Shown here: piece after piece, positions 7,349 to 52,099 of the stretch
Position numbering within the stretch: the stretch's first letter is position 1
How the letters are laid out: every line of letters starts with the position of its first letter
Source: Candidatus Omnitrophota bacterium
GTDB taxonomy: Bacteria > Omnitrophota > Gorgyraeia > Gygaellales > JAMWDD01
DNA: 64,000 nucleotides
Assembly: GCA_028717645.1 (NCBI GenBank)
Contig: JAQUNK010000002.1
Location: 12,897 to 76,896, forward strand
Direction: 5' to 3'
Notes under the pieces: model-generated
Databases searched by the model: none
The model's input: the letters and a program-made list of their open reading frames with translations, nothing else
What the model was told of the DNA's origin: nothing
Translations under genes and position numbers: made by a program

Positions 7349-8719
7349 ATGAAAAAAGGCCTGATTTTCGCATTTATTTTATTTTTAAATTTAACGGCAG
7401 CCGCTTTTGCCGAAAAAAATTGTAGCTCTCCCGTAGCCGCGGCAATAAAAGACTACGCTATTACTCGCTATAAAGCCGGAGAATACGCCGACGCGCGGCA
7501 CGAATTCAGCAAGTGCCTGATGATCGAGCCGGAATGCTCGGTCTGTAGCGATTATCTCGATAAAATAAATAAAATACAGCGGGAATCGCCCGAAAAGGCG
7601 CTGGATTATTATGAAAAAACGCCGGTGGCCATTCTAGAGTCACAGAAACTCGATGAGTGCAAGACCTTTGTTTTCGACGGCACCAAATCTTATACCCCCG
7701 AAGGAAAAATCGTTACCTATGCCTGGGATTTTGGCGACGGAACAAAGGCCCAGGGCCCTTCAGTTGTCCATACCTACGCGAAAACGGGAAAATATAACGT
7801 TACCCTTACCGCAACCAATGATTCCGGGCTTGCCTGCAATAAAGCCATGGTCACCGAAGAATTGACCGTTGCGGCCGCGCCGAACATTTCTATCGAAGGG
7901 CCGGTTTCCAGCTGCCCGAATACCGAAGTAGCCTTCGAGGCCAAGGTTGACGCAGCGAACAAAGATAAATTTATGGTGAGCTGGGATTTCGGCGACGGAA
8001 CAACTGCCGAAGGCCTGGCTGTAAAGCACACTTATGCACAAGCCGGAAAATATACAGTAAAGGCCAAGGTTACGGATGATTCTCTTCAGGGTTGTAACAG
8101 CGCAGTAGCCGGATCGGCCATAAAAATAAATATGCCTCCTAAGGCTGTGGCAGGAAATGACATCATTACTTGTTTTCCCGCTGAGCAGCCGACCCTCGAG
8201 GTCAAGTTCGACGGTTCGGCTTCAGAGGGGGAATCTTTGACCTACCTCTGGGATTTCGGCGACGGTGTTACCTCGAATTTGGTCAGGCCGGTGCATGTTT
8301 ACCGTAAATCCGGAAAATATAAAGTAACATTGACTGTAACAAGCGACGCGCAATCTGCGTGCAATAAATCAGAAGACTCCATTAATGTTATTCTGAACCA
8401 TCCGCCTATCGCCGACGCCGGCGAGAACAAGGTATGCTGCCTGGGCGAGCCTGTGTTATTCGATGCTTCGCGCTCAAGCGACCCGGACGGTGACGTGCTC
8501 ACCTATGCCTGGGATTTCGGCGACGGGACATCTTTTGAAGGTAAAGAAGCGACGCATACCTACGCAAAGGCAGGAGAATACAAGGTGGTACTTAAGGTAA
8601 GCGACGGATTTATGCAAAGTAATTGTAATTCCAGCATCGCAGAATTCACCGCCAAAGTGGCCGAAGTGCCCGTGGCGATAATGACCATAAAACCTTATAC
8701 AGCAGAAGAAAATAAATAG
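7349..8719 (+). CDS. secreted PKD-domain repeat protein (about 4-5 PKD domains)
   Basis: Signal peptide present. The WDFGDGT...HTY signature recurs at roughly 85-aa spacing. The SD is AAGGGGG. Confidence 0.75.
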   Translation: MKKGLIFAFILFLNLTAAAFAEKNCSSPVAAAIKDYAITRYKAGEYADARHEFSKCLMIEPECSVCSDYLDKINKIQRESPEKALDYYEKTPVAILESQKLDECKTFVFDGTKSYTPEGKIVTYAWDFGDGTKAQGPSVVHTYAKTGKYNVTLTATNDSGLACNKAMVTEELTVAAAPNISIEGPVSSCPNTEVAFEAKVDAANKDKFMVSWDFGDGTTAEGLAVKHTYAQAGKYTVKAKVTDDSLQGCNSAVAGSAIKINMPPKAVAGNDIITCFPAEQPTLEVKFDGSASEGESLTYLWDFGDGVTSNLVRPVHVYRKSGKYKVTLTVTSDAQSACNKSEDSINVILNHPPIADAGENKVCCLGEPVLFDASRSSDPDGDVLTYAWDFGDGTSFEGKEATHTYAKAGEYKVVLKVSDGFMQSNCNSSIAEFTAKVAEVPVAIMTIKPYTAEENK

Positions 8720-8751
8720 TCTTTATATTTTAAACCAAAATGGAGGTTAGT

Positions 8752-11334
8752 ATGCGCGTGCAAAAAGTAATTTCTTTGCTGTTTCTATCCGTCTTTTTAT
8801 TTTGTGCCACTTCTTTCGCCGCTCGTATTCCCCCGGTTGAATCGGGAGCGGAATATTTCTATATCTTCGGGCCCGACGGTAATCCTTATTACGGCGCCTA
8901 TACCGGCGATGTTACGTTTTATGTCGATGTGGATAAGAACACGGACAAAGACGTGGTTATCGAGATCATCAATCCCGGCGTAAGCACAAAACTGGATGAT
9001 TGTTATAAAGAATGCGCCACGGAAACCGAATTCAGCATTTACGGCAGCGGCCTCCTGGACAGCAAATCTTTTATCCAGCAGGATCCCAATAAACTGGTGT
9101 ATCGATTCGGCCCGTACGCGGCGAATAAAGGGACAGCAGTAGGCACTAAATATAGATTCAAGGTAGTGGTCAAAACGCTTAAGGGTGATGACGCCAATCT
9201 TTTTGCCTTGAATGTCCTACCCGAAGACAGCGAAGTTTTCACTTACGGCCTTCCTTTTAGGCTAACTAAGGTTGAAGGCAAGGAAATGCATTTTTATCCC
9301 ACTGTCCCCGCGAATACAGAATACATCACTATGCGTACTTATGATATTGATCCCGACGGAGGGATGAGCTATCTTTACGCGGGAACGCGAAAATACAAGA
9401 TCACTGATTCTGCCAGCGGTGCCTGGTCGGAAACCAAAATTCCGCTTTCCAATGCCGAAGCAGTGAGCCTAAAATATGTTTTGATAAAAAAGACCCAGAA
9501 GCACGGAAACGCGGTGATCAGCGCCCTGGATAATAAAGGTAACCAGATACCGATTTATTTTAGGCCTCCGTTAAAGTTGGCTTTTGTATCCACACAAAAA
9601 GAGACTGTGCGTTCGGTCGCTCCTAAAAAGAGGCCGATACCGGAGTCAAAGAAAAATAAACCCGTAACCAGCGCCGCCAAAAAGGCCAATGTGCCGGTGG
9701 CAAAAAAGAGCATAAAATTCGTGCCGCAGGCAGAAACCAAGTTGGGCGGAAAATGCGATACATTTATTTTTGACGCAACAGAATCTTATGATCCCAACAA
9801 AAGGCCGCTGGCCTTCCGCTGGGATTTCGGCGACGGCTCAAGCTCCGACCAACAGGTCGTGACGCATACTTATAAGAAAGCGGGATCATATACGGCAACT
9901 TTGTCTGTTTCCAATAATACAGACTTGGCCTGCAATAAAGATACTAAGACCCAGTCGGTAAGAGTGAATTTCCCGCCCAAGCCGGTATTGAATGTGCCTG
10001 ATGTTTCCTGCGTTAACCAAGAAGTCGTTTTTGATGCCACAGATACCACCGGTAGCGAAGGTACAAAGCTTTCCTATGTGTGGGACTTTGGCGACGGCGC
10101 AACTTCACAGGAAGCCAAGGCCAAGCATACTTATAGCAAGAACGGTGTATACAAAGTTGCATTAGTGGTCAAGGATGATTCTGGTACGCCCTGCGATACC
10201 AGTTCTGCGATCCGGACCATCAAGATAAACGCCGCACCAATAGTCAAGATCGATGAGAAAATAATTTTATGCGAAGGCGACCCGGATAAAGCACTGGAAG
10301 TGACCTTTGACGGCTCGGCATGCTCTGATCCGGACAACGACAGCCTGACTTACCTCTGGGATTTCGGCGACGGGAAAAAAGGCGAGGGCCAAGTTATTAC
10401 GCATACCTATGAAAAAGGCGGTAATTATACCGTGCGCCTTACCCTTGCTGACGATTCCAATTCCGGCTGTAACAGTGCCACTGGTGTTATTCAGGTGAGC
10501 GTTAACCATTCTCCCAAGGCCGTGGCAGGTGAAGATAAGAATATCTGCTCCACCGAAGAGGTTTCCCTGGACGGTTCAAGATCGTACGATAGAGACAGAG
10601 ACGAACTTACGCACTCTTGGGACTTAGGCGACGGCACAAAGAAGGTCGGGCCGAAGATCACTCATCGTTATGCAAAGGGCGGCAGGTACAATGTTACTTT
10701 AACCGTAGATGACGGCCGCGGCACGAGCTGCTCTAAATCTATCAGCTCTTTGGTGGTGAATGCCAATACCGCGCCTTTCGCATCTCTAGAGGCTTCCAAG
10801 ATCGCCTGCGTAGGCGAACAGGTATCTTTTGACGCTACGGGTTCCCATGACTTAGACGGTGACACTCTTACCTACATCTGGAACTTCGGTGATGGAAAAG
10901 AAATGAAGGTCGGGCCGCTGGTCACGCATCGTTTTGATAAAGGCGGGAAATATAACGTGAGTGTAACGGTCGACGACGGAAGAAAATCTCCATGTTCCAA
11001 GGCGATCGCCCAGGCGGAAATTAAGATAAATACTCCGCCGGTGGCAGTAAGCGGGCCGAACCTGGTTTGCTGCGCAGGAGACATTGCCCGTTTTGACGGT
11101 TCGCGCTCCAGCGATGCCGACGGAGACGACCTTACTTATCTCTGGGATTTCGGCGACGGAGGTACGGGTAAGGGAAGCAAGGTGACCCATGAATATAAAA
11201 AATCCGGCACATACACAGTGGTCCTTACGGTAAAAGATAATTCCGGCTCAAAGTGCGATAGCGCGACGGCGAAATTTACCGCACAGGTAAGCGAGAGCCC
11301 TGTTTCCGTGATGAAAGTAAAACCGAAGCAGTAA
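8752..11334 (+). CDS. large secreted PKD-domain repeat protein (unique ~300-aa N-domain, Lys/Pro-rich linker, >=7 PKD domains)
   Basis: The ORF track starts at 8740; the ATG at 8752 is favoured because GGAGG lies 5 nt upstream. Eight W(D/N)FGDG repeats are present, and the C-terminus is paralogous to the preceding gene. Confidence 0.75.
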   Translation: MRVQKVISLLFLSVFLFCATSFAARIPPVESGAEYFYIFGPDGNPYYGAYTGDVTFYVDVDKNTDKDVVIEIINPGVSTKLDDCYKECATETEFSIYGSGLLDSKSFIQQDPNKLVYRFGPYAANKGTAVGTKYRFKVVVKTLKGDDANLFALNVLPEDSEVFTYGLPFRLTKVEGKEMHFYPTVPANTEYITMRTYDIDPDGGMSYLYAGTRKYKITDSASGAWSETKIPLSNAEAVSLKYVLIKKTQKHGNAVISALDNKGNQIPIYFRPPLKLAFVSTQKETVRSVAPKKRPIPESKKNKPVTSAAKKANVPVAKKSIKFVPQAETKLGGKCDTFIFDATESYDPNKRPLAFRWDFGDGSSSDQQVVTHTYKKAGSYTATLSVSNNTDLACNKDTKTQSVRVNFPPKPVLNVPDVSCVNQEVVFDATDTTGSEGTKLSYVWDFGDGATSQEAKAKHTYSKNGVYKVALVVKDDSGTPCDTSSAIRTIKINAAPIVKIDEKIILCEGDPDKALEVTFDGSACSDPDNDSLTYLWDFGDGKKGEGQVITHTYEKGGNYTVRLTLADDSNSGCNSATGVIQVSVNHSPKAVAGEDKNICSTEEVSLDGSRSYDRDRDELTHSWDLGDGTKKVGPKITHRYAKGGRYNVTLTVDDGRGTSCSKSISSLVVNANTAPFASLEASKIACVGEQVSFDATGSHDLDGDTLTYIWNFGDGKEMKVGPLVTHRFDKGGKYNVSVTVDDGRKSPCSKAIAQAEIKINTPPVAVSGPNLVCCAGDIARFDGSRSSDADGDDLTYLWDFGDGGTGKGSKVTHEYKKSGTYTVVLTVKDNSGSKCDSATAKFTAQVSESPVSVMKVKPKQ

Positions 11335-11343
11335 ACTAACTGC

Positions 11344-11373
11344 TTGACAAAGTTTGCTGAGATATTGTATTAT
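11344..11373 (+). promoter_or_regulatory. sigma70-like promoter TTGACA-18-TATTAT upstream of the OMP gene
   Basis: The hexamers are read directly from the sequence, and the ATG is 41 nt downstream with an SD (AAAGGGG). Confidence 0.5.
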
Positions 11374-11413
11374 CAGTGTACGTATATTTTAAAAATATAA
11401 AAAGGGGTTTAAG

Positions 11414-12004
11414 ATGATAAGGAAGTTTTTGGTCGTGGTTTTGTGTTTGTTGGCGCTCAATTTATTTTCCGGAGTGAGCAAGGCGTCTGACGGCAAGAAA
11501 TCCTGTATCAAAGAACTCGGTATCCTGACCGGTTATGCCACCGGCAACCTCAAAAATAAGGAACATTACGAACTAGTCCCGACGATATTGCGCATCGGTT
11601 TTGATCTGAAGCCGGTTTTGCATAAAATTAATAATTTTAACCCAAAGGGCCTAGTAGAATTTGAGCTGGAACCTTTTGCCAGCACCGTCATCAGCCCTAA
11701 CAATAACGCAGAAGTAGGGTTTGGCCTGCTCTTTAAATACGCTTATCCGGTTACGGAAAGATTATATCCTTATATCGAAGGCGGCGTGGGTTTTATTTAT
11801 ATTACCCAGCACACGCTGGAACAGTCGACGCAATACAATTTTACGCCCCAGGGCGGCGTGGGCCTGACTTATTTCCTGAAGAAGGACCGGCTGGCACTTA
11901 ATGTCGGTTATCGCTACCGCCATCTTTCCAATGCCTCTATCAAATCTCCCAATAGCGGCATTAATGTAGATATGGGCCTATTGGGCCTGTCGCTATTTTA
12001 TTGA
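11414..12004 (+). CDS. outer-membrane beta-barrel protein, PagL/acyloxyacyl-hydrolase-like (lipid A deacylase family candidate)
   Basis: Signal peptide, alternating amphipathic strands, C-terminal aromatic (…LSLFY) and an RHLSNAS His/Ser pair near the C-terminus. Confidence 0.4.
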   Translation: MIRKFLVVVLCLLALNLFSGVSKASDGKKSCIKELGILTGYATGNLKNKEHYELVPTILRIGFDLKPVLHKINNFNPKGLVEFELEPFASTVISPNNNAEVGFGLLFKYAYPVTERLYPYIEGGVGFIYITQHTLEQSTQYNFTPQGGVGLTYFLKKDRLALNVGYRYRHLSNASIKSPNSGINVDMGLLGLSLFY

Positions 12005-12029
12005 TCCCGGTTTCTAACTTTTCCAGCCG

Positions 12030-12581
12030 ATGAGCTATGCGTTAGCTTTAAATAAGGCCTGGACAGACCTGGAAAGAGGATCTCAAAGCAAGAAATATAC
12101 CGTAAAATTCTTAAGCGACGAATATTCCGTCGATATTGCCAAGAGACAGATCCTTTCCTTATCTTGTAACGCGCCGAGCAAAGAGTTCCTTTCCATCCTC
12201 ATTCTGCATTATCTGGAGAAGAAATTAAAGGGCCTGCCTGAATTGAGCCATGAGTGGATGTCCTTTAAGGAGATACCGGAAAGCCTGGGTTACTACCCTA
12301 CGTTTAAAAAACGCGTGTTTGAGCCCCTGCTAAGAAAATACGGCGCGCACCCTGAAGCAGTGCTGGAGAAGCTCGAGTCTCTGGCAGCTAAAAAGCTTGA
12401 GTACGGGGATGTGGGTATTCTGGTAGAGGCGTTAGAAAATGTCCCTATTTTAGTGACCTTTTGGCGCGCCGATACGGAATTCGGCCCCGAGGTAAACGTC
12501 CTTTTTGACCGCAGTATTTTACAAATATTCTGCACTGAAGATATCATCGTATTGGCAGAATTCATTGCCAGGACAATTTAA
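12030..12581 (+). CDS. hypothetical cytoplasmic protein (183 aa), immediately upstream of the B12-radical SAM gene
   Basis: The ORF is intact with no recognisable motif; it possibly belongs to a DUF family found next to radical SAM genes. Confidence 0.3.
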   Translation: MSYALALNKAWTDLERGSQSKKYTVKFLSDEYSVDIAKRQILSLSCNAPSKEFLSILILHYLEKKLKGLPELSHEWMSFKEIPESLGYYPTFKKRVFEPLLRKYGAHPEAVLEKLESLAAKKLEYGDVGILVEALENVPILVTFWRADTEFGPEVNVLFDRSILQIFCTEDIIVLAEFIARTI

Positions 12582-12586
12582 AAAAA

Positions 12587-14032
12587 ATGAAAGTTTTGTT
12601 GATCGATCCGCCTTGTGATTATTGGGGTTTTGCCGGGGGGGCCGACTCTTGCGCTCCGCCCATTGCCCTGGCCACTGTGGCGGCATACCTGGAAAAGAAC
12701 GGCATTGACGTTTCGATAATAGATTGCAACGTCGAGAAAATAGATTTCGCCCGCCTTAAAGAACTGATCGGCCAGCGCCGGCCAAAAGTAGTGGGCCTGC
12801 CCAGTTCGATGATGTGTTTTGTACCCGCTTCTTTTAAGGTGGCAGAACTGGCAAAAGAGGTCAGCCCGGACATCGTAACTGTAGGCGGCGGAGTGCAGTT
12901 TACGCTTACCCCCGATGAGGCCCTGAATCGCTGTAAGGCGCTGGATTATGTTGTCCGCGGCGACGGAGAGTATCCTTTTCTGGACCTTTTAAGAGAATTG
13001 GAAAAATCGGCGCCGAATATAGAAAAAGTACGCGGCATATCTTTCCGTAAAAATAACCGGATCACCCATAATCCTGATCACGATGTAGTAGCCAATTTAG
13101 ACGACCTGCCATATCCTGCTTGGCATCTCCTGCCTTTTGATAAATACAGCCTGCCGATCATTCCCAAAAAGTGGGGAGGGCTGGCGATGGTCACTACTTC
13201 GCGGGGCTGTCCGCATAAATGCACATTTTGTTCACCGCGTCTCTCACAATATCCCTACCGGCATATGAGCGCTAAAAAAAGCGTGGATATGATAGAAGAG
13301 CTTTATCGCCGCTACAATAAAAAAGTCATCTGGTTAAGCGACCTTACCTTTAACGCCGACAGGAAAATGACCGAAGAATTCCTGGATGAAATTATCAGCC
13401 GTAAGCTCGACGTAAAGATCGCCGCCGAAGGCCTGCGCGCGGAATTCATTATCCGCGACGAGGATCTGCTTCCCAAGATGAAAAAGGCGGGGTTATTTTT
13501 CGGTTTTGTGGGCGTAGAAAGCTGCTCAAAAAAGAAATTGGATAAATATAAAAAGGCCTTGGCGCCTGAGCAGGCCAAAAAAGCAATACGGCTCTTAAAA
13601 AAGCACGGGATACACACCTACTGCTTCTTTATTATCGGGGAGCGCGATGAGGACAGGGAAGATATCCTGGAGACCTTAAGGTTTGCTAAGGAGCTCGACC
13701 CGACCATTGCTATATTTTCCTGTGCCACACCTTTCCCGGGCACGGATTATTACCGCGCGCTCGAAGATTCCGGCGTCATCGAAATAAAGGACTGGTCAAA
13801 ATACGACTTAGCACATCCGATCGCGCCCACGAAATACTTAAGTATAAAAGAAGTGCAGGAACTGCAGGGTTATTGTTTCAGGAGTTTTTACGTGCGGCCG
13901 CTCAAGATCATCAAACACGTAGTGTTCGGCGACGCGTTAGAGCGTAATTGGTACCTTACCCAACGCATCAGAGGGAAAGATTTTGCCCAGGTGGGTATGG
14001 ATATGGAAAAAGCAAAAAAACACTGGGCCTAA
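12587..14032 (+). CDS. B12-binding-domain radical SAM protein (class B)
   Basis: The N-terminus has a Rossmann-like cobalamin-binding region (KVLLIDPP…IDCN). The TSRGCPHKCTFCS CxxxCxxC radical SAM motif is present. Confidence 0.75.
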   Translation: MKVLLIDPPCDYWGFAGGADSCAPPIALATVAAYLEKNGIDVSIIDCNVEKIDFARLKELIGQRRPKVVGLPSSMMCFVPASFKVAELAKEVSPDIVTVGGGVQFTLTPDEALNRCKALDYVVRGDGEYPFLDLLRELEKSAPNIEKVRGISFRKNNRITHNPDHDVVANLDDLPYPAWHLLPFDKYSLPIIPKKWGGLAMVTTSRGCPHKCTFCSPRLSQYPYRHMSAKKSVDMIEELYRRYNKKVIWLSDLTFNADRKMTEEFLDEIISRKLDVKIAAEGLRAEFIIRDEDLLPKMKKAGLFFGFVGVESCSKKKLDKYKKALAPEQAKKAIRLLKKHGIHTYCFFIIGERDEDREDILETLRFAKELDPTIAIFSCATPFPGTDYYRALEDSGVIEIKDWSKYDLAHPIAPTKYLSIKEVQELQGYCFRSFYVRPLKIIKHVVFGDALERNWYLTQRIRGKDFAQVGMDMEKAKKHWA

Positions 14033-15555
14033 ACAGGCAGGGTGATCTCTTTTTCCAGCGTTGCGGTAAATGTCCCCGACGGGTGGATATTTATCTCTTC
14101 GATCTTTTTGCGGATCTTGTCTAATGATGACCTGCGTATCTGTTTGACCACCGGTAAGGCAATGATATTGCTGATATATCTCCAATGCGGAGGCGGCAGG
14201 CGCATTACCTTTAGTACATGGGTATAGATCTGCATGGAAAGCCGGCTGAAACTTTCTTCGAGGGTAATGATAAAATTATTGCGCACGGCGCAGACTTCCT
14301 TGATGCGGTCGAAGGCTTTTTCTTTGTTTAAGCCCGGGTAAAGATAGAACAGGGGCTTAAGCATGTTGTAATCCTCAGCGATAAACCCGTCTCTACGGAT
14401 AATTTTTTCTAACTCCGTCCCCTTAAATAACCTCACTCCCAAAGTAAAGATCACCAGATTATTTTTCCCTGACAAATATTTTTTGGCGAATTCCAGCGAT
14501 TCTTCGACCGTTTTTTCCGTTTCTCCGGGCGAGCCGAATAAAAAGAACCAGGCTGCGAAAAGGCCGGATTTATTGGCGAGTTCGGCGGTCCTGATCACAT
14601 CTAGCTTGGTAAAGCCCTTTTGCATGGCCTCAAGCATTTTATCGGAGGCGCTTTCTGCGGTGATCTCTACGGAACTAAATCCCGCCTGTTTCATCAGGCT
14701 GAACAGTTCTTCGGAGGTTTCCTTCGGATTTATCCCCATGGTAGTGAAACGCGCTTTTATTTTCCTTCTGATTATTTCGCGGCAGATCTCCAGGGCATGC
14801 CTTAAGGGCATATTAAAAGTAGAATCGACAAAATCAAAATACCGGTAACCGGTTTTCTTGATCAACAATTCTATTTCATCCGCAATGTCACGGGCATCCC
14901 GCAGCCGGTAAGAATCCCCCTCGATATTGGCATAGACACAGTAGATGCAGCGGTTGATACAGCCGCGTTTTGTTTGTATGGGCAGGCCCGCCTGGGAACG
15001 GAAATATTCTTTGGGGTCTATCCAGTCAAGGATGCCGGATGAAGAAAATTCTTTGCAGCGGTTCGGCTGTGCAGGGATAAACTGGCCGTTTTTTAAACAA
15101 GAGAGCCCAGGCACGCCCTCGAGCGGCTTACCCGCAGCTACTCTTTGCGCGATCTGGCCAAAAGGCTCTTCTCCGTCGCCGATGACCGCATAATTGCAGC
15201 CCAGGTATTCCATGATCTCTTTGGGTAATATGGACACGGCCGGACCGCCCAGGATGATGGGCGAGGGCGAGAGGCTTTTACAGGTATTGACGATTTCTTT
15301 TACTTTTGCCAGCTGCCAGTTGGGATAGATAAAGCTTACCGTATCTATGTTCCTTAGCGATAGGCCGATAATATCCGGAGCAAAACGGGGGATCTCTTTT
15401 TTTAGCAAAGGCAGGAAATCTTTGATGAAACAAAGGTCAATGACCTTGACTTCATGGCCCAGGTGCTTAAGGCTTGATGCCACATAGGCTATGCCGATAG
15501 GCATGACCGGCGTATCGAATTTTTCCTGGTTAGTATTGATCAGGAGGATCTTCAT
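14029..15555 (-). CDS. B12-binding-domain radical SAM protein (class B), convergent paralogue
   Basis: KILLINTNQEKFD…VIDLCF B12-like N-terminus and TKRGCINRCIYCVY motif. Its 3' end overlaps the + strand paralogue by 4 bp. Confidence 0.75.
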   Translation of the reverse strand: MKILLINTNQEKFDTPVMPIGIAYVASSLKHLGHEVKVIDLCFIKDFLPLLKKEIPRFAPDIIGLSLRNIDTVSFIYPNWQLAKVKEIVNTCKSLSPSPIILGGPAVSILPKEIMEYLGCNYAVIGDGEEPFGQIAQRVAAGKPLEGVPGLSCLKNGQFIPAQPNRCKEFSSSGILDWIDPKEYFRSQAGLPIQTKRGCINRCIYCVYANIEGDSYRLRDARDIADEIELLIKKTGYRYFDFVDSTFNMPLRHALEICREIIRRKIKARFTTMGINPKETSEELFSLMKQAGFSSVEITAESASDKMLEAMQKGFTKLDVIRTAELANKSGLFAAWFFLFGSPGETEKTVEESLEFAKKYLSGKNNLVIFTLGVRLFKGTELEKIIRRDGFIAEDYNMLKPLFYLYPGLNKEKAFDRIKEVCAVRNNFIITLEESFSRLSMQIYTHVLKVMRLPPPHWRYISNIIALPVVKQIRRSSLDKIRKKIEEINIHPSGTFTATLEKEITLPV

Positions 15556-15644
15556 TTTAATTTTTATCCTTTTTAAAGCAGCTCAATTATATCTAAAAAT
15601 TAATGGAAATGCCAGCACAAAAATGATATTATCAAATGAGGCCC

Positions 15645-15786
15645 AAACTTACGGAACGAGCGTTAGAGAGTAAACGTAAGTTTGCTGGCCGAATTTGTCC
15701 CGCCTTTTTGGCGGTTTGATAAACAGTTATCCTGCCCAAAAGGGCGGGATTAATCCGCGCAAATAATCCCGAAGTTTCGGGATTAT
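15645..15786. repeat. composite structured intergenic region: TTACG hairpin (AAACTTACG-N21-CGTAAGTTT), a 14-bp-arm hairpin (TCCCGCCTTTTTGG…CCCAAAAGGGCGGGAT) and a 24-bp perfect palindrome ATAATCCCGAAGTTTCGGGATTAT overlapping the ORF ATG
   Basis: Inverted repeats are read directly. The CCCAAAAGGGCGGGAT core and the TTACG hairpin both recur at 52007-52099. Confidence 0.45.
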
Positions 15787-16567
15787 GCGCTCATTAAAAA
15801 TGTCAGAAGATAAACAAGCAGCTTTCAGGCGTTGGCAGGACTCTATGCAGTTCAAAAGTTCTCCGGAAGCCCTTTTTAAGTACCACCTGCCGGTATTGGC
15901 CGTCTTTATATCCATTGTTTGTTCAGCCTGCATCGTGATTTTCGCGAATAAGCAGTCTGTTTTATCTTGCGTGGTGGTGGATGTTTGTTTGTGGCTGGCT
16001 TCTTTTTTGTTCTTGAGGCTCGGTTTTGTTGGTAAAAGAGACGATTATCTGAAACAGCATGGGAGGGCAGCGTATAGGGTTGCCGCTTTCAAGTTTCTCT
16101 TGCCTTACGGCGCGTTATGGCTGGCCGCGGTAACTATGCCGTTGTGGGCGCCGGGAGAAAGGGCCATACGCTTATTCCCTTTTTCAATCATCGGCCTGGT
16201 TGTGTTGGTGGCGGGATTTTTCCTAATGCGTAAGATATTGAATGTATTTGGGATAGACCGCCTGATCTATCTGTATACCTATTTTCCGGAAGATGCAACC
16301 ATAGTAAAGCTAGAGATCTTTGAATTTATTCGCCATCCGGCTTACGCGGCTTGGATATATTTCGGCGCGGCGTTTTTTCTCATCCGCGGTTCCTGGGCGA
16401 GCCTGCTATGCTTAGCGATAAATTTTATCGCTATTTATATTGTAGCCAGGGCTGAAGAAGGAGATATCATCAAAGATTTCAAAGGAGATTACTACGCTTA
16501 TCAAAACAGCGTTCCCTGTTTTTTCCCAAAAAGGCCGCTGGCTTTTGTAAAGTTCATCTTTAAATAA
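15785..16567 (+). CDS. ICMT/PEMT-family integral-membrane carboxyl methyltransferase-like protein
   Basis: It is polytopic, and the C-terminus carries the family signature IRHPAYAAW…ARAEEGDIIKDFKGDYYAYQNSVP (RHPxY … EE…Y motif). The true start may be the ATG at 15800. Confidence 0.65.
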   Translation: MRSLKMSEDKQAAFRRWQDSMQFKSSPEALFKYHLPVLAVFISIVCSACIVIFANKQSVLSCVVVDVCLWLASFLFLRLGFVGKRDDYLKQHGRAAYRVAAFKFLLPYGALWLAAVTMPLWAPGERAIRLFPFSIIGLVVLVAGFFLMRKILNVFGIDRLIYLYTYFPEDATIVKLEIFEFIRHPAYAAWIYFGAAFFLIRGSWASLLCLAINFIAIYIVARAEEGDIIKDFKGDYYAYQNSVPCFFPKRPLAFVKFIFK

Positions 16568-16574
16568 GGATCCA

Positions 16575-16943
16575 ATGCCCACTGTCTTGATCGCTGAAGA
16601 CGACAATTTGATCGCGGATAATTTAAAGAAGGCACTTTCCCGAAAAGGCGTAGATGTTTCAATCGCGGACAATGGCATTGAAGCGCTGAAGCTCGCCAAA
16701 GAAACCAATCCCCAGGCCCTGCTTTTGGATATAAATTTACCCGGGATGTCGGGCATAAAAGTCCTGGAAGAACTGAATAAGCAGCCTCACTCAACAAAAG
16801 TAATTGTGATTACCGGCACCTTTGACAGCGATACCGAGACGACGGTAAAAAATATGGGCGTCTACGCCTTCTTAAAAAAACCTTTTATGATAGAGGTTTT
16901 GTTTAAACTTCTGGCAGACTTAAAAATAATCAATGAAAGGTAA
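16575..16943 (+). CDS. stand-alone response-regulator receiver (CheY-like REC) protein
   Basis: It has LIAEDD, the phospho-acceptor region LLLDINLPGMSG and a K in the β5 region. Its stop overlaps the start region of the next gene. Confidence 0.8.
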   Translation: MPTVLIAEDDNLIADNLKKALSRKGVDVSIADNGIEALKLAKETNPQALLLDINLPGMSGIKVLEELNKQPHSTKVIVITGTFDSDTETTVKNMGVYAFLKKPFMIEVLFKLLADLKIINER

Positions 16944-16944
16944 A

Positions 16945-18033
16945 ATGAAAGATAATAAGATAGTCTCAAAATTTGCCAGTTCGCCTTCCATAAAAATCAC
17001 TCCCCCTGCTCTAAGCAATATTAATGATCCAGATTCAAAGAAAAGGATTGATGGCTTCTGGAACAAAGACTTTAAAGGGTATTTAGATAAATTAATAAAA
17101 ATATCAGATGCTTTAGATAGAGGAGAACTCGATAAAGAAGAAGCCGTAGCTTCGGTTACAGATATCAGCGAAGCGATTTTCCACGCAGGAGACGAATTAG
17201 AAGCTTTTCTTAATAATAAGGTCATTATTAAAAAGATTAAAAAAGCCTTCAGAGAACTATGCGGGCCATGGGTTTACAGAAGCAAGATCGTTAAACATGC
17301 TTTTGATAAGCCAAGGGGATATCCCGGGGATTCTAAATTAATAGAAATCATCTATGATAATAAGCCTATTTCAGAAAACATAGGTTATTGTTGCGATAAG
17401 TATTTTCTAAACAATGCTTATGCGATTGCTGTTAGGAATCGTAAAGATAGGATGAGGCAGTTGTTGGCCGATTTCATAAATAATTTTCCAACTGATGAGA
17501 TAAAAATTCTTAATATTGCTTGTGGTTCTTGTAGGGAAATTAAAGAATTATACAGCGATAGAAATTTTAGCACAAATAAACGAGTCGATTTTGCTTTAGT
17601 TGATCAAGATAGCGAGGCCTTAGATTTTTGTAGAAATTCCCTTAAGAATTACGCCAAGGTTTCATTCAATTTTTTACAGCATAATATTCTTGAGTATATA
17701 AAAGATAATAACAAGTATTCTAAAATTTTAGGCAAACAAGATATGATTTATAGTATTGGTTTAGCAGATTATCTGCCTGACAGGGTATTAGTAAGTCTGT
17801 TTTCATTTTGTTATAGTTTATTAAAACCTAAAGGCCAATTAATTATCGCGCATAAAGATATCAGCAGGTATAAACCTTTACCACCAGATTGGGCATGCGA
17901 TTGGGCTTTTTATCCGCGTAATCAAAATTATTTGATAAAGATGATAACTGAAAACAGCATCAAGGGTTTCGATCTAAAAGTAGAACGAGAACTCAGCGGC
18001 AGTATTCTATTTTTGATACTAACAAAGGTATAG
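16945..18033 (+). CDS. class I SAM-dependent methyltransferase with ~190-aa N-terminal extension (first gene of the low-GC segment)
   Basis: Motif I is LNIACGSCREI, followed by an acidic residue (VDQD) and motif IV. The ORF track starts at 16933; the ATG at 16945 lies just past the REC stop. Confidence 0.6.
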   Translation: MKDNKIVSKFASSPSIKITPPALSNINDPDSKKRIDGFWNKDFKGYLDKLIKISDALDRGELDKEEAVASVTDISEAIFHAGDELEAFLNNKVIIKKIKKAFRELCGPWVYRSKIVKHAFDKPRGYPGDSKLIEIIYDNKPISENIGYCCDKYFLNNAYAIAVRNRKDRMRQLLADFINNFPTDEIKILNIACGSCREIKELYSDRNFSTNKRVDFALVDQDSEALDFCRNSLKNYAKVSFNFLQHNILEYIKDNNKYSKILGKQDMIYSIGLADYLPDRVLVSLFSFCYSLLKPKGQLIIAHKDISRYKPLPPDWACDWAFYPRNQNYLIKMITENSIKGFDLKVERELSGSILFLILTKV

Positions 18034-18181
18034 CATGACTTTTTTAGATTTTTTAGGTTTAGGAGGCGTTCTTTTTCATGAAGAACAAATATTGAGCGGC
18101 GATGATAAGGGCGCTCGTTGTCTTAATCCTTTAAGTGTCCTTAGAATTAGACCTCATCGAATATATTAGCCAAAATTAAAG

Positions 18182-19099
18182 ATGCAAAAAGAAGATTATA
18201 TTTATACTGATAAAACTGGCTATAAAGTTCATATCGTTTCTCTAGTACCGGATGCACCGAAGAGATTACTTTTAATCCCTCCTTTAGTTGGAGCGACGGG
18301 TACATTAGCTATAAAGACCTTCAGATATTTCTTCCGCGAAGGGTGCATTCTTATGTCTTTCGATTATTGTGGTCATTATAAAGAAATTGATAATAAATTT
18401 ACGCTTAGAGGTACATTTAGTGATACTAAAATAGTTTTGGCTCATGCATTTGAATACGCTAAAAAAATAAATATTCCTTTCCATGTAGTCGGTGCTTGTT
18501 ATGGATTAATCCCTTTAATTTATGTACTAAATGAGTTAAGCTGGCCAATAGAAATAAAATCGATGTTTAGCGTCAGCGGCTTATTAAATATTGATGAAAT
18601 TCTAAATTTCAATGATTACAAAATTTATTTAGAAAAAAAGAACTTATTTTTCAAGAATAAAGAAGATTTCATTAATTTTATATTCACTAATAAAAAAGAT
18701 TTCATCATTGATAAGCAAAAATACATGGATGCGTTAACGGAATACCTTTTAAAGGTATTCGCTGAATTAGCCGATACTATATCTTATAAAAGCTTTGGAG
18801 TATTGGAATATGCAAAAACGCAGTTTTATGAAACTTTCTATGAATTTACGACCATTAATTTACCAGAAATTAAAATTCCGAGACAACTTCCTTGTCTATT
18901 TTTTCTTGGAAAACAAGACACAATTCTTAACCTTCAGTTAAAAGAAAGTAACGCCGAATATTTGAGAAAAATAAACAGGATTGCTCCGCATGCAAAACTT
19001 TGCAATATTAAAATAGATCATTTTGGGAGAGGAGAGGATCATTATATTATAGGCAAAGAGGGGATGAAGTTCTTGATTGCTAACGATGGGAGAGCATGA
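18182..19099 (+). CDS. alpha/beta-hydrolase-fold-like protein with Cys in the nucleophile elbow (GxCxG)
   Basis: It has an HVVGACYG elbow, an upstream IPPLVGATG oxyanion-type loop, and downstream GKQD (acid) and IDHFG (His) candidates in the canonical order. Confidence 0.4.
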   Translation: MQKEDYIYTDKTGYKVHIVSLVPDAPKRLLLIPPLVGATGTLAIKTFRYFFREGCILMSFDYCGHYKEIDNKFTLRGTFSDTKIVLAHAFEYAKKINIPFHVVGACYGLIPLIYVLNELSWPIEIKSMFSVSGLLNIDEILNFNDYKIYLEKKNLFFKNKEDFINFIFTNKKDFIIDKQKYMDALTEYLLKVFAELADTISYKSFGVLEYAKTQFYETFYEFTTINLPEIKIPRQLPCLFFLGKQDTILNLQLKESNAEYLRKINRIAPHAKLCNIKIDHFGRGEDHYIIGKEGMKFLIANDGRA

Positions 19100-20007
19100 T
19101 TAAAACCATAGTCTGCCAAAAAAATAGAGTTTTATTAGATAGTTTAGAAGTAAAACGATGGCCATATTATTTGATTCTGCCTTTATCATGGTTAGTAGCT
19201 TTATGGATGTTCATTAAAAAGACCGTTAACGCTGCGTTTAATAGAAAACAGGAAACCGAGCTACTGATATTCGATGGAATAGGGAAATACGGTAAAATCA
19301 TAAAGAAACATGTAGCAGGATGGAAGGCCGTAGACCTTATTTATAATCATTGTTTTGGCGAAGATCGAAGCCTAGGCGGTCTATTGGATGACTTTTGGTT
19401 TGGTTGTTTGAATTGTCAAGCTGCCCGCAATCGATTTAAATTAGCGAAAAGAGAACTAGAACACACAATCCTTGGATTAAGAAACCAGAAAGAAGTGAGA
19501 ATTATTTCATTAGCTTCTGGTACTGGGCAGATTGAAAGCGAAACAATAGCGAAAATCAAAAAGCTGGGCATTAATACTAAAATTATTTTAATCGATAAAG
19601 AAAATGAGGCGCTAAAGCGTGCTATAGAGTTTATTTCCGCCAATGGTGTACAAAAAGAAACGGAAATTATGCATTGTGATGCTACTCGCGCGCTAGAGGC
19701 GACAAAAGATTTTAAGCCACATATAATCACGGCAATTGCTTTGTTAGATTACTTTACTGAAAAAGAGATAATTGGATTTATTTCTAAAATATACCATGTT
19801 CTTTCTCCGGGCGGATTTTTTATTGCTTCAAATACTATGCCGAATGTGGAAATGCCATTTGTAAAGTGGGTTGTCGGCTGGCCACTGGTTTATAGGAAAT
19901 CAAAAGATTTAGCAGATATATTCGAGAAAAGCGGTTTCAGCCAGTACGAAATAATTAGTGAACCATTACATATCCAAAATATCATAGTTGCTAAAAGGTT
20001 TAACTAA
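19096..20007 (+). CDS. class I SAM-dependent methyltransferase with an N-terminal hydrophobic helix
   Basis: Motif I is ISLASGTGQ, with an acidic ILIDKEN and a post-I CDATRALE. It overlaps the previous gene by 4 bp. Confidence 0.6.
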   Translation: MIKTIVCQKNRVLLDSLEVKRWPYYLILPLSWLVALWMFIKKTVNAAFNRKQETELLIFDGIGKYGKIIKKHVAGWKAVDLIYNHCFGEDRSLGGLLDDFWFGCLNCQAARNRFKLAKRELEHTILGLRNQKEVRIISLASGTGQIESETIAKIKKLGINTKIILIDKENEALKRAIEFISANGVQKETEIMHCDATRALEATKDFKPHIITAIALLDYFTEKEIIGFISKIYHVLSPGGFFIASNTMPNVEMPFVKWVVGWPLVYRKSKDLADIFEKSGFSQYEIISEPLHIQNIIVAKRFN

Positions 20008-22165
20008 AATGGGATTTCTCTATATCAATTTTGTTGTTGTTTTATGGGTTACTGCAATAACTACTTTGTTACTTGGGGCGTTTGTTTTGATAAGGAATTA
20101 CCAGCATATCGTTAACAAGACATTCGCCTTTTATTCTTTTAGCATTTCTTGGTGGAGTTTTTGCGAGATTTGGGGAATAGCTTGTGATAAGAAATCGACT
20201 GCACTTACTTGGACGCGCATAGAGCAAATTGGCGTATTTTTTATTCCCACTTTTTGTATCCATTTTGTAATTTCATTATTGAATATCAAAAATAAAAAAT
20301 GGCTGCTTCAAATTGCTTATTTTTTTAGTACTATATTCGCGATTCTATCTTTTACCCCCCTTATGATGGCTGATTCTGTTAAAACTGTGCCATATGTAAA
20401 GTACTTTGGCACGCCAGGGTTGGCTTACCATTTTGCTATTTTGTTTTTTATTATTTTATGCGGTTACGTTCTAATTAAATTATACAGTGCTTATAAGTCA
20501 TCTAGCGGAGCTAGAAGAAATCAACTTAAATATCTTTTTTGGAGTTCATTGTTTGGCTATTTCGGTGGGGGCGCCAACTTTCTTTTAGTTTATGGCATAA
20601 GCTTGCCTTTCATTAATCCTTTTGGCACCTATGCGTTACCAATCTATATTGCTGTTATGGCCTACGCTATTCTCAAACATCATCTCATGGATATTGAGGC
20701 TGCCCTTACTCGTGCATTTATTCTGACAGCAGTATATGTTTGTGTAATTGGGGCTACTTTAATTGTCGCTTCCGCTCTGCAGGTTCCCCTACAAAATGTC
20801 GTCAACAATTTATCAATGTTTATTACTTTAAGTATTTTTGTAATTTTATCACTTTCCGCTCCATACACATATCTTTACTTCCAGCAACGCTATGATGAAA
20901 AACGCCTGACTGCACAGCGCGAACAATTCAGCGCTCTGAAACAGATTACTCAAGGAAGCTTGGAAATAGAAGACTTGAGCCATCTTTTGAAAGTCATTCC
21001 GCACTTTCTGATGCAAATGTATCAGGCAAAACTCAAGACCAAAATCTCTCAGACAGCAGTATATTTCTATGACGCTACCACCAAACTATATATTATGGTG
21101 GCGCATAGGGGCAGTCAAAAACCTTCTAAGGCCTATCTTACGACAGACGATGCCTTAATTTTTTGGTTTACCAAAAAAGTGCCCTACTTGGTCCAGAAGG
21201 GATATTATAAAGAAAAAGAACTCCAGGCGCTACGTAATGAAGATATAGATTTCTTGCTGTCGCAATCTTCCTTACTGAGTCACGAGCAGGGCCTAAAAAA
21301 TCTGCTGGAATCCATTAGACTGGAGTTAGCCCAGTTAAAAGCGCATATTTGTGTTCCTTGTTTTTACCAGAAAGAATGCACCGGGATTTTAATTCTAGGC
21401 GAGAAAACTAAAGGTTCTTACAATCAGGAGGAAATTGATGCTCTGAGCACGGTTTCTAACCATATTGCGATGAGTATTCGTAGCGCTCAATTGCGTCAAG
21501 ATTTGACGGCAAGTTATCTTGAAGCCATTACCAGTATTGCCAAATCCTTGGAAGCCAGAGATCCCTATACCAAGGGTCATTCAGAAAGGGTAGCCTTATA
21601 CAGCTTAGCTATCGCCGCAGAGCTTCAAGGTAAACCTCCGTATAATCAGATAGTTGATTTTCAGGTAAAGATTCAGCAGGCTGCGCTTTTACATGATGTG
21701 GGTAAGATCGGTATCCGTGACGATATACTTTTAAAACCAGGCGGTTTGAATCCGGAAGAAGTTGAAGTTATTAGGCAACATCCGCAGATAGGCGAGCATA
21801 TCTTAAGCGGATTAAAAGGGATTTCGCGCGACGTACTTTTGGGTATTAGATATCATCATGAAAAATATGACGGAAGCGGTACTACAGAAATAAAAGGTGA
21901 GCAGATTCCGCCGATTGCTCGTATACTTGCCGTTGCTGATACTTATGATGCGATGACTACTGACCGGCCTTATCGCAAGGGTCTTTCCGACCGAGAAGCG
22001 TTAAAAGAAATCATCAAAAATACCTATTACCAGGGCCCGCAATGGGACCCCAAGGTGGTCGAGGCAATGCTTGAGGCATTTAAAAAAGGCATATTCAAGC
22101 AAGGTGTCTCCATTACGCAGGAAGAAATAGAGCAAATAAAAAGAGAAATAGAAGTTCGCCCATAA
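19988..22165 (+). CDS. polytopic membrane (8-9 TM) GAF-domain HD-GYP-like phosphohydrolase signalling protein (GYP degenerated to GTT)
   Basis: The first ~290 aa are hydrophobic helices and the central region is GAF-like. The C-terminus has LLHDVGKIG…IRYHHEKYDGSGTT…DTYDAMTTDRPYRKG. Confidence 0.7.
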   Translation: MLKGLTKMGFLYINFVVVLWVTAITTLLLGAFVLIRNYQHIVNKTFAFYSFSISWWSFCEIWGIACDKKSTALTWTRIEQIGVFFIPTFCIHFVISLLNIKNKKWLLQIAYFFSTIFAILSFTPLMMADSVKTVPYVKYFGTPGLAYHFAILFFIILCGYVLIKLYSAYKSSSGARRNQLKYLFWSSLFGYFGGGANFLLVYGISLPFINPFGTYALPIYIAVMAYAILKHHLMDIEAALTRAFILTAVYVCVIGATLIVASALQVPLQNVVNNLSMFITLSIFVILSLSAPYTYLYFQQRYDEKRLTAQREQFSALKQITQGSLEIEDLSHLLKVIPHFLMQMYQAKLKTKISQTAVYFYDATTKLYIMVAHRGSQKPSKAYLTTDDALIFWFTKKVPYLVQKGYYKEKELQALRNEDIDFLLSQSSLLSHEQGLKNLLESIRLELAQLKAHICVPCFYQKECTGILILGEKTKGSYNQEEIDALSTVSNHIAMSIRSAQLRQDLTASYLEAITSIAKSLEARDPYTKGHSERVALYSLAIAAELQGKPPYNQIVDFQVKIQQAALLHDVGKIGIRDDILLKPGGLNPEEVEVIRQHPQIGEHILSGLKGISRDVLLGIRYHHEKYDGSGTTEIKGEQIPPIARILAVADTYDAMTTDRPYRKGLSDREALKEIIKNTYYQGPQWDPKVVEAMLEAFKKGIFKQGVSITQEEIEQIKREIEVRP

Positions 22166-24040: not shown

Positions 24041-25068
24041 AAAAAAGATATTTTCTGATACCGGCGATAATCGTAATCCTGGTTTTGTTTATACTTTATA
24101 AAGAGAAACTTGTTTTTAAGATTGCCCGCGCCAACCTTAAAAAAACCCTGCCAATCAGTAAACTGGAGATAAAACGCATAGAATTCAACCCTTTTACTCA
24201 TCTTTTATTGGAAGGCGTGAGCATCAAGTCGCCGTTACAGAAATATTCTATATACTTAGCCAGTGTCAGGGCGGACTATACCCTATTTTCAATATTAAGG
24301 AGCACTGTAAATAAAGTAGAATTAATTGGTATAAATGTGTCTATTGAAGATAATGTCAAAGTTAATCCCGCAAAGCCTATTTTAAACGTAAAAGAAATCC
24401 GCGCTTCAGGCTTTGTAAAATTTAGAGACGTGGAGATTAAAAATTTTAAGGCCCAAATTTTTCAGCAGGAATTCAGCCGACCGCATTTAAAGGGAAGCTT
24501 GAGCGCCGAGGCGGTAAATATGAAAAAAGTAAAATTGGCTAATCTTAACGCAGCGATAGATGTCACGCCAGAGTCTCTTAGTGTCCCGGAATTTGATTTA
24601 ACCGCATTTAAAGGAGAGATTAAGGGTAAGGCGCTGGCAAAAATTTCAAAACCAGCGATAAATTTTTCGGTTGACCTAAAGGGTAAGAATGTAGACTTAG
24701 CACAGATGGATGAGGATTTAGAACTAAAGGAAAAAGTCGAAATCAGCGGCTTATGCGATTTTTCTCTACTGGTCAAGGGTAATGAGGGCGGGTTGACCGA
24801 TCTTAGCGGCGGCCTGGATACGCATGAAGGAGGCGGTAAATTTATCATTACCGATAAGCAGGCTCTAAGTAACCTTAATTATGCGCAGGGAGTATCTTTT
24901 GATGCGGCCCTTGAAAGTTTAAAAAATTACCGGTATGATGAAGGTAACGCCAAAGTGTATATTGAAGACGGAAACATTGTTTTGCATATGCTTATGGACG
25001 GCGAACTCGGTAAAAGAGACCTGATGGTGGTTTATCATGGCAGCCTGAAATTTAACCAAAAATTCTAA
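24037..25068 (+). CDS. membrane-anchored hypothetical protein (N-terminal TM; possibly AsmA-like/DUF748-type beta-rich domain)
   Basis: Single N-terminal helix followed by a long beta-strand-rich periplasmic-type sequence; the assignment is weak. Confidence 0.3.
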   Translation: MKKRYFLIPAIIVILVLFILYKEKLVFKIARANLKKTLPISKLEIKRIEFNPFTHLLLEGVSIKSPLQKYSIYLASVRADYTLFSILRSTVNKVELIGINVSIEDNVKVNPAKPILNVKEIRASGFVKFRDVEIKNFKAQIFQQEFSRPHLKGSLSAEAVNMKKVKLANLNAAIDVTPESLSVPEFDLTAFKGEIKGKALAKISKPAINFSVDLKGKNVDLAQMDEDLELKEKVEISGLCDFSLLVKGNEGGLTDLSGGLDTHEGGGKFIITDKQALSNLNYAQGVSFDAALESLKNYRYDEGNAKVYIEDGNIVLHMLMDGELGKRDLMVVYHGSLKFNQKF

Positions 25069-26081: not shown

Positions 26082-26093
26082 AAGGAGGAAGGG

Positions 26094-26681: not shown

Positions 26682-26683
26682 TA

Positions 26684-47530: not shown

Positions 47531-47558
47531 ACTTTAAGTAAAACAAGGAGGAGGTTTT

Positions 47559-48065: not shown

Positions 48066-48069
48066 AGCA

Positions 48070-51194: not shown

Positions 51195-51203
51195 CCAAAG
51201 ATT

Positions 51204-52007: not shown

Positions 52008-52099
52008 TCCCGCCCTTTTGATCGACAATTGCAGTATAAATAACCCAAAAGGGCGGGATAAATTCGGACAAATGACTTACGTTCGCTTCGCTCCGTAAG
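52007..52099. repeat. composite intergenic hairpins: ATCCCGCCCTTTTG-N24-CAAAAGGGCGGGAT (14-bp arms) followed by CTTACG-N12-CGTAAG
   Basis: It shares the CCCAAAAGGGCGGGAT core and the TTACG/CGTAA hairpin architecture with 15645-15760. It also acts as a terminator-like structure after lpxI. Confidence 0.5.

Follow-up and report, generated by a model that had tools for sequence, protein, structure and literature searches.

What chemistry, and on what substrate, would be carried out by two different cobalamin-dependent radical S-adenosylmethionine (SAM) enzymes whose genes lie tail to tail beside that of a membrane methyltransferase? The question is raised by a locus in a Candidatus Omnitrophota bacterium (assembly GCA_028717645.1, contig JAQUNK010000002.1), analysed within a stretch of 64,000 nucleotides of that contig, here termed the window, to which the coordinates below refer. 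The two radical SAM genes, rSAM481 (481 amino acids (aa), 12587-14032, + strand) and rSAM508 (508 aa, 14029-15555, - strand), converge with overlapping stop codons, the + strand TAA lying at 14030-14032 and the - strand TAG being the complement of CTA at 14029-14031. An earlier note, made from the letters of the DNA alone, had described this convergent pair of class-B enzymes with its overlap at 14029-14032 and had offered a role in membrane-lipid modification as one possibility. The open reading frames (ORFs), stops and domains were confirmed, and comparative gene context strengthened the lipid role, which is the best-supported reading of the locus. It is favoured here, with moderate confidence, in the form of an accessory, oxygen-independent module for tailoring membrane or envelope lipids, in which rSAM481 would work with the PEMT/ICMT-family methyltransferase and rSAM508 would supply a second radical step.

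Two radical SAM enzymes of separate subfamilies

Both proteins carry an N-terminal B12-binding domain (PF02310; E = 9.5e-21 in rSAM481 and 2.8e-17 in rSAM508) followed by a radical SAM core (PF04055; E = 9.8e-23 and 3.9e-22 respectively), all above the Pfam cutoffs. The CxxxCxxC motif reads CPHKCTFC at residue 208 of rSAM481 (C208, C212, C215) and CINRCIYC at residue 199 of rSAM508 (C199, C203, C206), and its cysteines are invariant in the family alignments A1 and A4. From these domains and motifs both are predicted to be class-B radical SAM enzymes, dependent on cobalamin and on [4Fe-4S]/SAM chemistry, and to be distinct from one another. Their sequences are 100% identical to Candidatus Omnitrophica entries at NCBI. 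The description of the pair as paralogous holds at the level of the superfamily (26% identity over 431 aa, E = 4e-28) but not in the sense of a recent pair, since they belong to different subfamilies; both have nearer relatives in other phyla than in one another.

No curated NCBIfam cutoff was reached by either enzyme. The best match of rSAM481 was BchE (TIGR02026; 245.8 bits over residues 3-456, cutoff 481), with HpnJ at 167.8 bits (cutoff 578) and HpnR at 139.7 bits (cutoff 650). For rSAM508 it was TIGR04072, named 'lipid biosynthesis B12-binding/radical SAM protein' and comprising the radical SAM enzymes of 'ladderane-type' acyl-lipid clusters, aligned end-to-end at 334.8 bits (E = 6.5e-100; cutoff 360), followed by BzaD at 196 bits (cutoff 450) and then by TsrM-type families; HpnJ and HpnR gave 92.5 and 68.4 bits against the same two cutoffs. 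By these profiles rSAM481 appears BchE-like within an isolated clade and rSAM508 sits just below the TIGR04072 cutoff, which places them in separate subfamilies and, as far as profile scores indicate, outside every characterised family. The class-B assignment of the earlier note is thereby upheld, and the outcome that it had named as refuting its reading, firm clustering of both within a characterised family, was not observed.

A model of rSAM481 made with AlphaFold2 (AF2; predicted local distance difference test (pLDDT) score 89.7) matched TsrM, OxsB, QCMT/MgmA, CysS, TokK and also AprD4 with TMq values of 0.66-0.74 (E = 1e-21 to 1e-23), at sequence identities of 14-19% to solved class-B structures, none of which stands out. 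The idea of a single closest solved enzyme was rejected because all class-B structures score alike. As no one structure is preferred, the fold of rSAM481 says nothing on substrate or reaction type. The best sequence match of rSAM508 in the PDB was TsrM (E = 4.9e-38). PDB entry 9CCB, an MCR glutamine methylase, was discarded as an uninformative comparison.

Relatives of rSAM481 comprise five proteins at 70-84% identity and three at approximately 50%, with all others at or below 41% and those of named source archaeal. A HMMER scan of 1.84e9 cluster representatives returned 6,492 matches at E <=1e-30, among them one full-length cluster at 51% identity, the next lying at 39%. When 185,579 species genomes were scanned, no Omnitrophota appeared among the best 80 matches; the best was a metagenome-assembled genome (MAG) of the Anaerolineae at 49%, and behind it came Bathyarchaeia, Thor-/Promethearchaeota, Thermoplasmatota, Methanomethylicales and Methanoperedens. 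In a neighbour-joining tree built without bootstrap, the Omnitrophota clade was sister to that of the Anaerolineae, and the gap in identity (49-50% as against 43% or less) agrees with this placement. Six giant proteins of 1800-2600 aa (P0365, P0376, P0421, P0430, P0460 and P0468) each include between two and seven B12-rSAM-like segments akin to rSAM481 and look, from their sequences, like multi-rSAM fusions.

For rSAM508, four relatives at 71-81% identity and two at 46-48% were followed by a large group at 38-41% that includes Gemmatimonadaceae, Verrucomicrobia and others. All 12 relatives tested scored 300-352 bits on TIGR04072, below the cutoff of 360, and the relatives of rSAM508 are therefore taken as a wide group sister to this family.

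Gene partners and a proposed membrane-lipid role

Across a spacer of 229 nucleotides (nt) from rSAM508 lies a gene for a protein of 260 aa (15785-16567, + strand; 255 aa in public gene calls, where it starts at 15800). It scored 33 bits on Pfam PEMT (cutoff 25) and 23.2 bits on the ICMT model (cutoff 24), and has at least four predicted transmembrane (TM) segments, with RHPAY at residue 183 and EEGDIIKDF (EE..I...F) at residue 224; these motifs presumably form the SAM site, by analogy with the Ma-ICMT structure. The protein is thus predicted to be an integral-membrane SAM methyltransferase of the PEMT/ICMT type, as the earlier note had proposed for the gene across the structured spacer. NCBIfam scores for isoprenylcysteine methyltransferase (29.5 bits against 160), MddA (28.1 against 270) and LmtA (TIGR04571; 20.7 against 325) all fell short of their cutoffs.

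The gene order PagL-like, DUF3786, rSAM481 convergent with rSAM508, PEMT/ICMT, response regulator and HD-GYP protein is kept in five related loci (L004, L005, L006, L097 and L099) in which the radical SAM proteins are 70-84% identical to those of the window. Synteny at such identity alone cannot show function, and independent recurrences were therefore sought. In the Anaerolineae, the rSAM481 relatives at 49-50% identity have a PEMT/ICMT gene directly downstream in three loci (L012, L014 and L015), overlapping the stop codon of the radical SAM gene in the first two and beginning 14 nt after it in the third. Profiles of these proteins and of the window's methyltransferase matched over the catalytic half with an hhalign probability of 97% (E = 9e-11), and the Anaerolineae proteins share its trio of weak NCBIfam matches. 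PEMT genes also occur no more than two genes from archaeal relatives of rSAM481 in L035, L044 and L052. In the literature that could be searched there was no report of a PEMT/ICMT enzyme paired with a B12-rSAM. On this comparative evidence the methyltransferase is a likely functional partner of rSAM481, and we infer that an ancestral rSAM-PEMT pair was split by rSAM508 in the lineage of the window.

A membrane protein beside the radical SAM gene is a wider feature of the rSAM481 family. Among its 47 closest loci (>=260 bits), 34 of 46 genes at position +1 were predicted to encode two or more TM segments, as against 11 of 43 at position -1 and a background of 23% (Fisher p = 6e-6, uncorrected for phylogeny). 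This recurring neighbour suggests that the family acts with a membrane-embedded partner on a membrane-resident substrate. In most archaeal relatives the gene directly downstream encodes a protein of approximately 240 aa with six TM segments and the motifs GHHPxC...CxxC and WDHxxIC (26 loci), and a small zinc-ribbon/2-TM protein is also present (36 proteins); neither matched a Pfam or NCBIfam family. The 6-TM protein was considered as a diverged PEMT or DUF3786 protein and rejected as either (hhalign probabilities <1%). The resulting module of three genes, B12-rSAM, 6-TM and zinc-ribbon, was seen in L021-L059 and others (for example L021 6989-9552 and L024 897-3398), in Bathyarchaeia, Asgard archaea, Thermoplasmatota, Methanomethylicales, Methanoperedens and Methanobacterium, and may represent an undescribed lipid-modifying system.

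The two enzyme types are also found together outside the Omnitrophota. Deltaproteobacteria provide two loci where a gene like rSAM481 (236-254 bits) adjoins one like rSAM508 (247-264 bits; 350-352 bits on TIGR04072). One of these, L061, encodes a SPASM radical SAM protein, two 2-hydroxyacyl-CoA-dehydratase-like subunits with a BcrAD-type activase, an LpxL-like acyltransferase, an acyl carrier protein (ACP), a FabD-like acyltransferase, a 4HBT thioesterase, three B12-rSAMs and FabG; by its gene content it is a textbook 'ladderane-type' acyl-lipid cluster, and its rSAM508-like protein scored 352.5 bits on TIGR04072. Clusters of the 'ladderane-type' occur in non-anammox phyla, Omnitrophota included, and their radical SAM proteins are uncharacterised (PMC2649909, PMC9902471, PMC13459092). 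Relatives of rSAM508 at 38-41% identity adjoin genes for a DUF92 membrane protein, an FAD-dependent reductase, a methyltransferase, an SRPBCC lipid-binding protein, a flavin reductase and FabF, and a relative at 48% (P0006) follows a GT2 and a polysaccharide-deacetylase gene. A conserved cluster of the Gemmatimonadaceae or soil type, seen in metagenome loci (L124, L148, L154 and L171), comprises a DUF92 membrane protein, a TIGR04072-like radical SAM protein, a FAD_binding_3 reductase, a flavin reductase, a class-I methyltransferase, SRPBCC, FabF and an aquaporin.

The membrane-lipid reading is carried by the following evidence: the recurrence of the rSAM481-type/PEMT pairing in Anaerolineae and some archaea; the adjacency of both radical SAM types in two Deltaproteobacteria, one of them with the acyl-lipid cluster; the TIGR04072 score of rSAM508, whose relatives lie in lipid-type contexts; the excess of membrane proteins at position +1; the envelope-rich window; and the precedents for lipid-modifying B12-rSAMs. 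Several such enzymes, namely Grs, Gmm, Cgm/Pgm, Ted and HpnP/R, modify membrane lipids (PMC11214058; 10.1101/2025.10.20.683597; PMC13459092).

Under this reading rSAM481 and the PEMT/ICMT enzyme would act jointly at the membrane, and the latter would methylate a substrate embedded there on one of its polar groups (carboxylate, phosphate, amine or thiol). A 5'-deoxyadenosyl radical generated by rSAM481 would abstract hydrogen from an unactivated carbon in the hydrocarbon part of that substrate, most likely followed by methyl transfer from methyl-cobalamin (C-methylation), with desaturation or ring formation as the alternative. As a relative of the B12-rSAMs of 'ladderane-type' clusters, rSAM508 might modify that acyl lipid, or a related one, in a further radical reaction. 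An envelope target and a regulated module may be hinted at by the PagL-like deacylase and by the genes for the response regulator and HD-GYP protein downstream of the methyltransferase gene.

Several observations weigh against the proposal. No enzyme of the locus reaches the cutoff of a characterised family, so that the chemistry is extrapolated. The full gene order is known only at 70-84% identity and may simply have been inherited; the methyltransferase appears to form an operon with the response regulator and HD-GYP genes rather than with a radical SAM gene; and its pairwise identity to the Anaerolineae PEMTs is only 22%. The membrane-neighbour statistic is not phylogenetically independent. 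No ACP, ketosynthase (KS) or other lipid-synthesis gene adjoins the locus in the window, and within approximately 10 kb of it there were none of the fatty acid synthase (FAS) type (ACP, KS, FabG/FabZ-like, acyltransferase). More distant relatives of rSAM481, at approximately 31-33% identity, lie in a natural-product-like multi-rSAM cluster (L085) and in a non-lipid context (L082), from which it follows that function is not fixed at about 30% identity. A FAS-type cluster assembled from the rest of the window was considered and rejected, as only core lipid A genes are present, 30 kb away.

A bolder claim, put forward only tentatively, is that rSAM481 with the PEMT/ICMT protein, and here with a TIGR04072-like radical SAM enzyme, constitutes an undescribed oxygen-independent system for radical modification of lipids, tied by evolution to the large archaeal B12-rSAM/6-TM/zinc-ribbon module. 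The lipids meant are bacterial fatty-acyl or envelope lipids, which would be C-methylated, desaturated or closed into rings. Oxygen-free chemistry on inert lipid carbons is known mainly from class-B radical SAM enzymes, and the newly assigned ones (Grs, Gmm, Cgm/Pgm, Ted and HpnP/R) have each explained a lipid biomarker. Radical SAM tailoring has been demonstrated almost only for isoprenoid lipids (PMC13459092); such a system, if real, would extend it to bacterial acyl lipids and would offer candidates for the genes behind methylated or unsaturated lipid biomarkers of anoxic settings that are still orphans. The gene set is compact, two radical SAM enzymes and one membrane methyltransferase, and comes from an uncultured anaerobic phylum. 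The rule that members of the rSAM481 family are nearly always followed by a membrane protein points to candidates for co-expression, and the locus ties the 'ladderane-type' radical SAM family to a second one in at least three lineages. If the lipid link is wrong, these are merely two more orphan B12-rSAMs among thousands.

The wider locus and competing explanations

The same gene order recurs in contig JAQTNT010000063 of assembly GCA_028713695.1, in two independent Logan assemblies and in JGI and ENA contigs, which excludes an artefact of assembly. The locus is found in one narrow Omnitrophota lineage. Its + strand run begins with the PagL-like gene (11414-12004), which is followed after 25 nt by the gene for a 183-aa DUF3786 protein (12030-12581) and, 5 nt further on, by rSAM481; the PagL-like gene adjoins DUF3786 also in L004-L006. 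The position of the 183-aa gene immediately upstream of the + strand radical SAM gene had been reported correctly. rSAM508 is monocistronic and has a promoter-like site, CTGGCA-N18-TATAAT, at 15586-15615 on the - strand (10/12 consensus positions).

Downstream of the PEMT/ICMT gene, after a gap of 7 nt, lies a stand-alone response-regulator receiver (16575-16943, + strand; Pfam Response_reg, E = 4e-26), and a 7TM HD-GYP protein with HisKA_7TM and HD_5 domains is encoded at 19988-22165 (+ strand). The order of methyltransferase, response regulator and, in part, HD-GYP is kept in L004, L005 and L099, and the HD-GYP orthologues of L004 and L005 are 61-63% identical to that of the window. In relatives the HD-GYP gene directly follows the response regulator; in the window a low-GC insert lies between them (16933-20007; GC 0.31-0.36 as against 0.45 for the window), with genes for two SAM methyltransferases of class I (PF12147/PF13847-like) and for a protein of 305 aa without a family. 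The first of these methyltransferases is also present in L097, the insert is missing from L004, L005 and L099, and a recent insertion is likely.

The 183-aa protein had been put forward as a small partner of the radical SAM enzymes, an idea that was not borne out. It belongs to DUF3786 (PF12654, E = 3.3e-36), and a search returned 711 matches, far more than for either radical SAM protein. Among the 120 matches listed nearly all were of 183 aa with 52-75% identity, and those with a named source all came from Omnitrophota. In three other Omnitrophota genomes the gene adjoins unrelated genes (SNase, VIT1-like and an FAD-binding reductase), with no radical SAM gene within 8 kb, and a profile of the family found 0 matches in approximately 150 loci of rSAM481 and rSAM508 relatives beyond the clade of the window. 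For the DUF3786 protein AF2 gave a model of high quality (pLDDT 92.7), and a Foldseek search gave no solved structural neighbour (best E = 0.09). DUF3786 is probably a bystander, a conserved Omnitrophota gene beside which the radical SAM genes happen to lie.

A first alternative is that there is no functional unit, the radical SAM, DUF3786, PagL-like and PEMT/ICMT genes being neighbours by descent from unrelated pathways. Consistent with this are the restriction of the full order to close relatives, the isolation of rSAM508 on the opposite strand, the apparent operon of the methyltransferase with the response regulator and HD-GYP genes, the unlinked DUF3786 genes elsewhere and the unremarkable GC content of the locus genes (0.45-0.49). 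Against it stand the independent recurrence of the rSAM481-type/PEMT pairing in Anaerolineae and some archaea and the adjacency of rSAM481-type and rSAM508-type genes in two Deltaproteobacteria. Mere neighbourhood is considered less likely than the lipid module, but a serious alternative to it.

A second alternative is lipid A remodelling, in which the PagL-like protein would deacylate lipid A, the methyltransferase would methylate a lipid A phosphate in the manner of Leptospira LmtA and the radical SAM enzymes would modify acyl chains. The PagL-like protein scored 68.4 bits on Pfam PagL (cutoff 23) and has an HLSN (HxSN) motif at residue 170, the histidine and serine of which we take to be catalytic as in P. 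aeruginosa PagL; it is assigned by this match to the outer-membrane beta-barrel lipid A 3-O-deacylases. The methyltransferase, like the PEMTs of L015 and L044, shows a weak match to LmtA, the lipid A Kdo2 1-phosphate O-methyltransferase, an LpxL-like acyltransferase occurs in the cluster of L061, and the rSAM508 relative P0006 follows glycosyltransferase (GT2) and deacetylase genes. Within the window are a lipid A and outer-membrane core cluster at 45188-52007 (BamA, Skp/OmpH, LpxD, an LpxC-FabZ fusion of 438 aa, LpxA and LpxI) and, at 26684-29060, genes for an ArnD-like polysaccharide deacetylase and a PMT_2/ArnT-like glycosyltransferase, presumably analogous to the Arn system. The LmtA score, however, is far below its cutoff and is equalled or bettered by those for isoprenylcysteine methyltransferase and MddA, the adjacency of PagL is confined to the window's clade, and most of the Anaerolineae and archaeal relatives with the rSAM-PEMT pair are not known to have lipid A. 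Lipid A remodelling is accordingly regarded as improbable. The envelope-rich surroundings fit an envelope target and prove nothing.

Other features of these surroundings were noted. DnaB is encoded just upstream of the BamA-Lpx cluster (43794-45137). The region 25068-29060 encodes a radical SAM protein of 337 aa that lacks a B12 domain and a DUF1318 protein ahead of the ArnD-like and ArnT-like genes, and may be a set for modification of lipid-linked sugars. Two PKD-repeat proteins (456 and 864 aa; 7349-11334) with many near-identical 'WDFGDG' units precede the PagL-like gene, as also in L004, and a 1103-aa ORF at 29813-33124 had no Pfam match at E <=0.001.

The 229-nt spacer between rSAM508 and the PEMT/ICMT gene had been described as a highly structured intergenic region. 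The structure itself is upheld (z = -4.5 against shuffled sequences, on both strands), whereas its specificity to the locus is not. The hairpins belong to a dispersed two-hairpin repeat at 15634-15752 (+ strand), a module of approximately 110-120 nt in which a core of TCAAATGAGG-stem-loop-stem-TTGGCCGAATTTG precedes a GC-rich hairpin; across copies the core takes the form TCAAATGAGG-[stem-loop]-TTG(G/T)CCGAATTTG. A second copy lies after lpxI, 36 kb from the first (52005-52113, - strand), two tandem copies are present in L097 (5103-5313) and one in L010, an unrelated Omnitrophota MAG (13505-13655). RNAalifold applied to the five copies gave a fold of 22 pairs, and compensatory changes were seen at 10. 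The homologous spacers of L004, L005 and L099 are only 54-99 nt long and have in common the promoter-like block of rSAM508 alone, which is kept in L097, L099, L005 and L004. As copies of the repeat occur elsewhere, the structure of the spacer is not a locus-specific regulator; it appears to be a REP/MITE-like or small-RNA family dispersed in the intergenic DNA of Omnitrophota. A riboswitch or known RNA was rejected: the hairpins are those of the dispersed repeat, no Rfam family matched the spacer, and a search of 11000-17500 gave only a chance match to IsrM (14.8 bits against 376).

Tailoring of a ribosomally synthesised and post-translationally modified peptide (RiPP) or of a secondary metabolite by B12-rSAM C-methyltransferases would agree with weak NCBIfam likenesses to ApyD (120 bits) and rSAM_ocin_1 (114 bits) and with the multi-rSAM clusters, SPASM proteins included, of distant relatives (L085). 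Those scores are nonetheless far below the cutoffs of 750 and 282, no protease, transporter, cyclodehydratase or RRE-type gene lies nearby, and the gaps of 79, 25 and 5 nt leave no room for a precursor. The only ORFs in gaps, of 16-35 aa, lie inside the repeat element; the small-ORF search thus yielded nothing plausible, in keeping with the earlier note, which had seen no precursor or cofactor genes nearby, and peptide tailoring is very improbable. A cofactor or pigment pathway, combining a BchE-like tetrapyrrole cyclase with a BzaD-like methylase of the B12 lower ligand, is highly improbable since BchE and BzaD, the best curated match of rSAM481 and the second best of rSAM508, are matched at approximately half their cutoffs, all relatives show the same sub-threshold pattern and the annotated genes of the window include no bch, bza, cob or tetrapyrrole genes.

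Comparison with known systems

The methyltransferase resembles the ICMT/PEMT family (isoprenylcysteine carboxyl methyltransferase, MddA and LmtA) in its polytopic build and its C-terminal RHPxY...EE region. With TIGR04072, the Kuste2803-type family (Rattray 2009, PMC2649909), rSAM508 shares a full-length alignment, and its relative in L061 sits beside an rSAM481-like gene; it differs in its sub-cutoff score and in having no FAS-type genes around it, and the family itself is without a demonstrated reaction (PMC13459092).

The class-B architecture of rSAM481 is that of BchE, HpnJ, HpnR and HpnP, and many of its relatives have been named 'BchE' automatically by JGI. It reaches only about half of the BchE cutoff, however, no bch or hpn genes lie nearby and its relatives are mostly non-phototrophic archaea.

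Possible functional precedents are the archaeal enzymes Grs, Gmm, Cgm/Pgm and Ted, class-B radical SAM enzymes acting on the hydrocarbon tails of membrane lipids. The archaeal relatives of rSAM481 are of approximately 474 aa, whereas published searches for lipid-modifying radical SAM proteins used >=495-500 aa (PMC11214058; 10.1101/2025.10.20.683597), and their partner is the 6-TM Cys/His protein, not Grs, Gms or AttH. The nearest large family of rSAM481, in which a membrane protein is a consistent neighbour, is archaeal (Bathyarchaeia, Asgard archaea, Thermoplasmatota and ANME-2d), and its spread resembles that reported for Ted.

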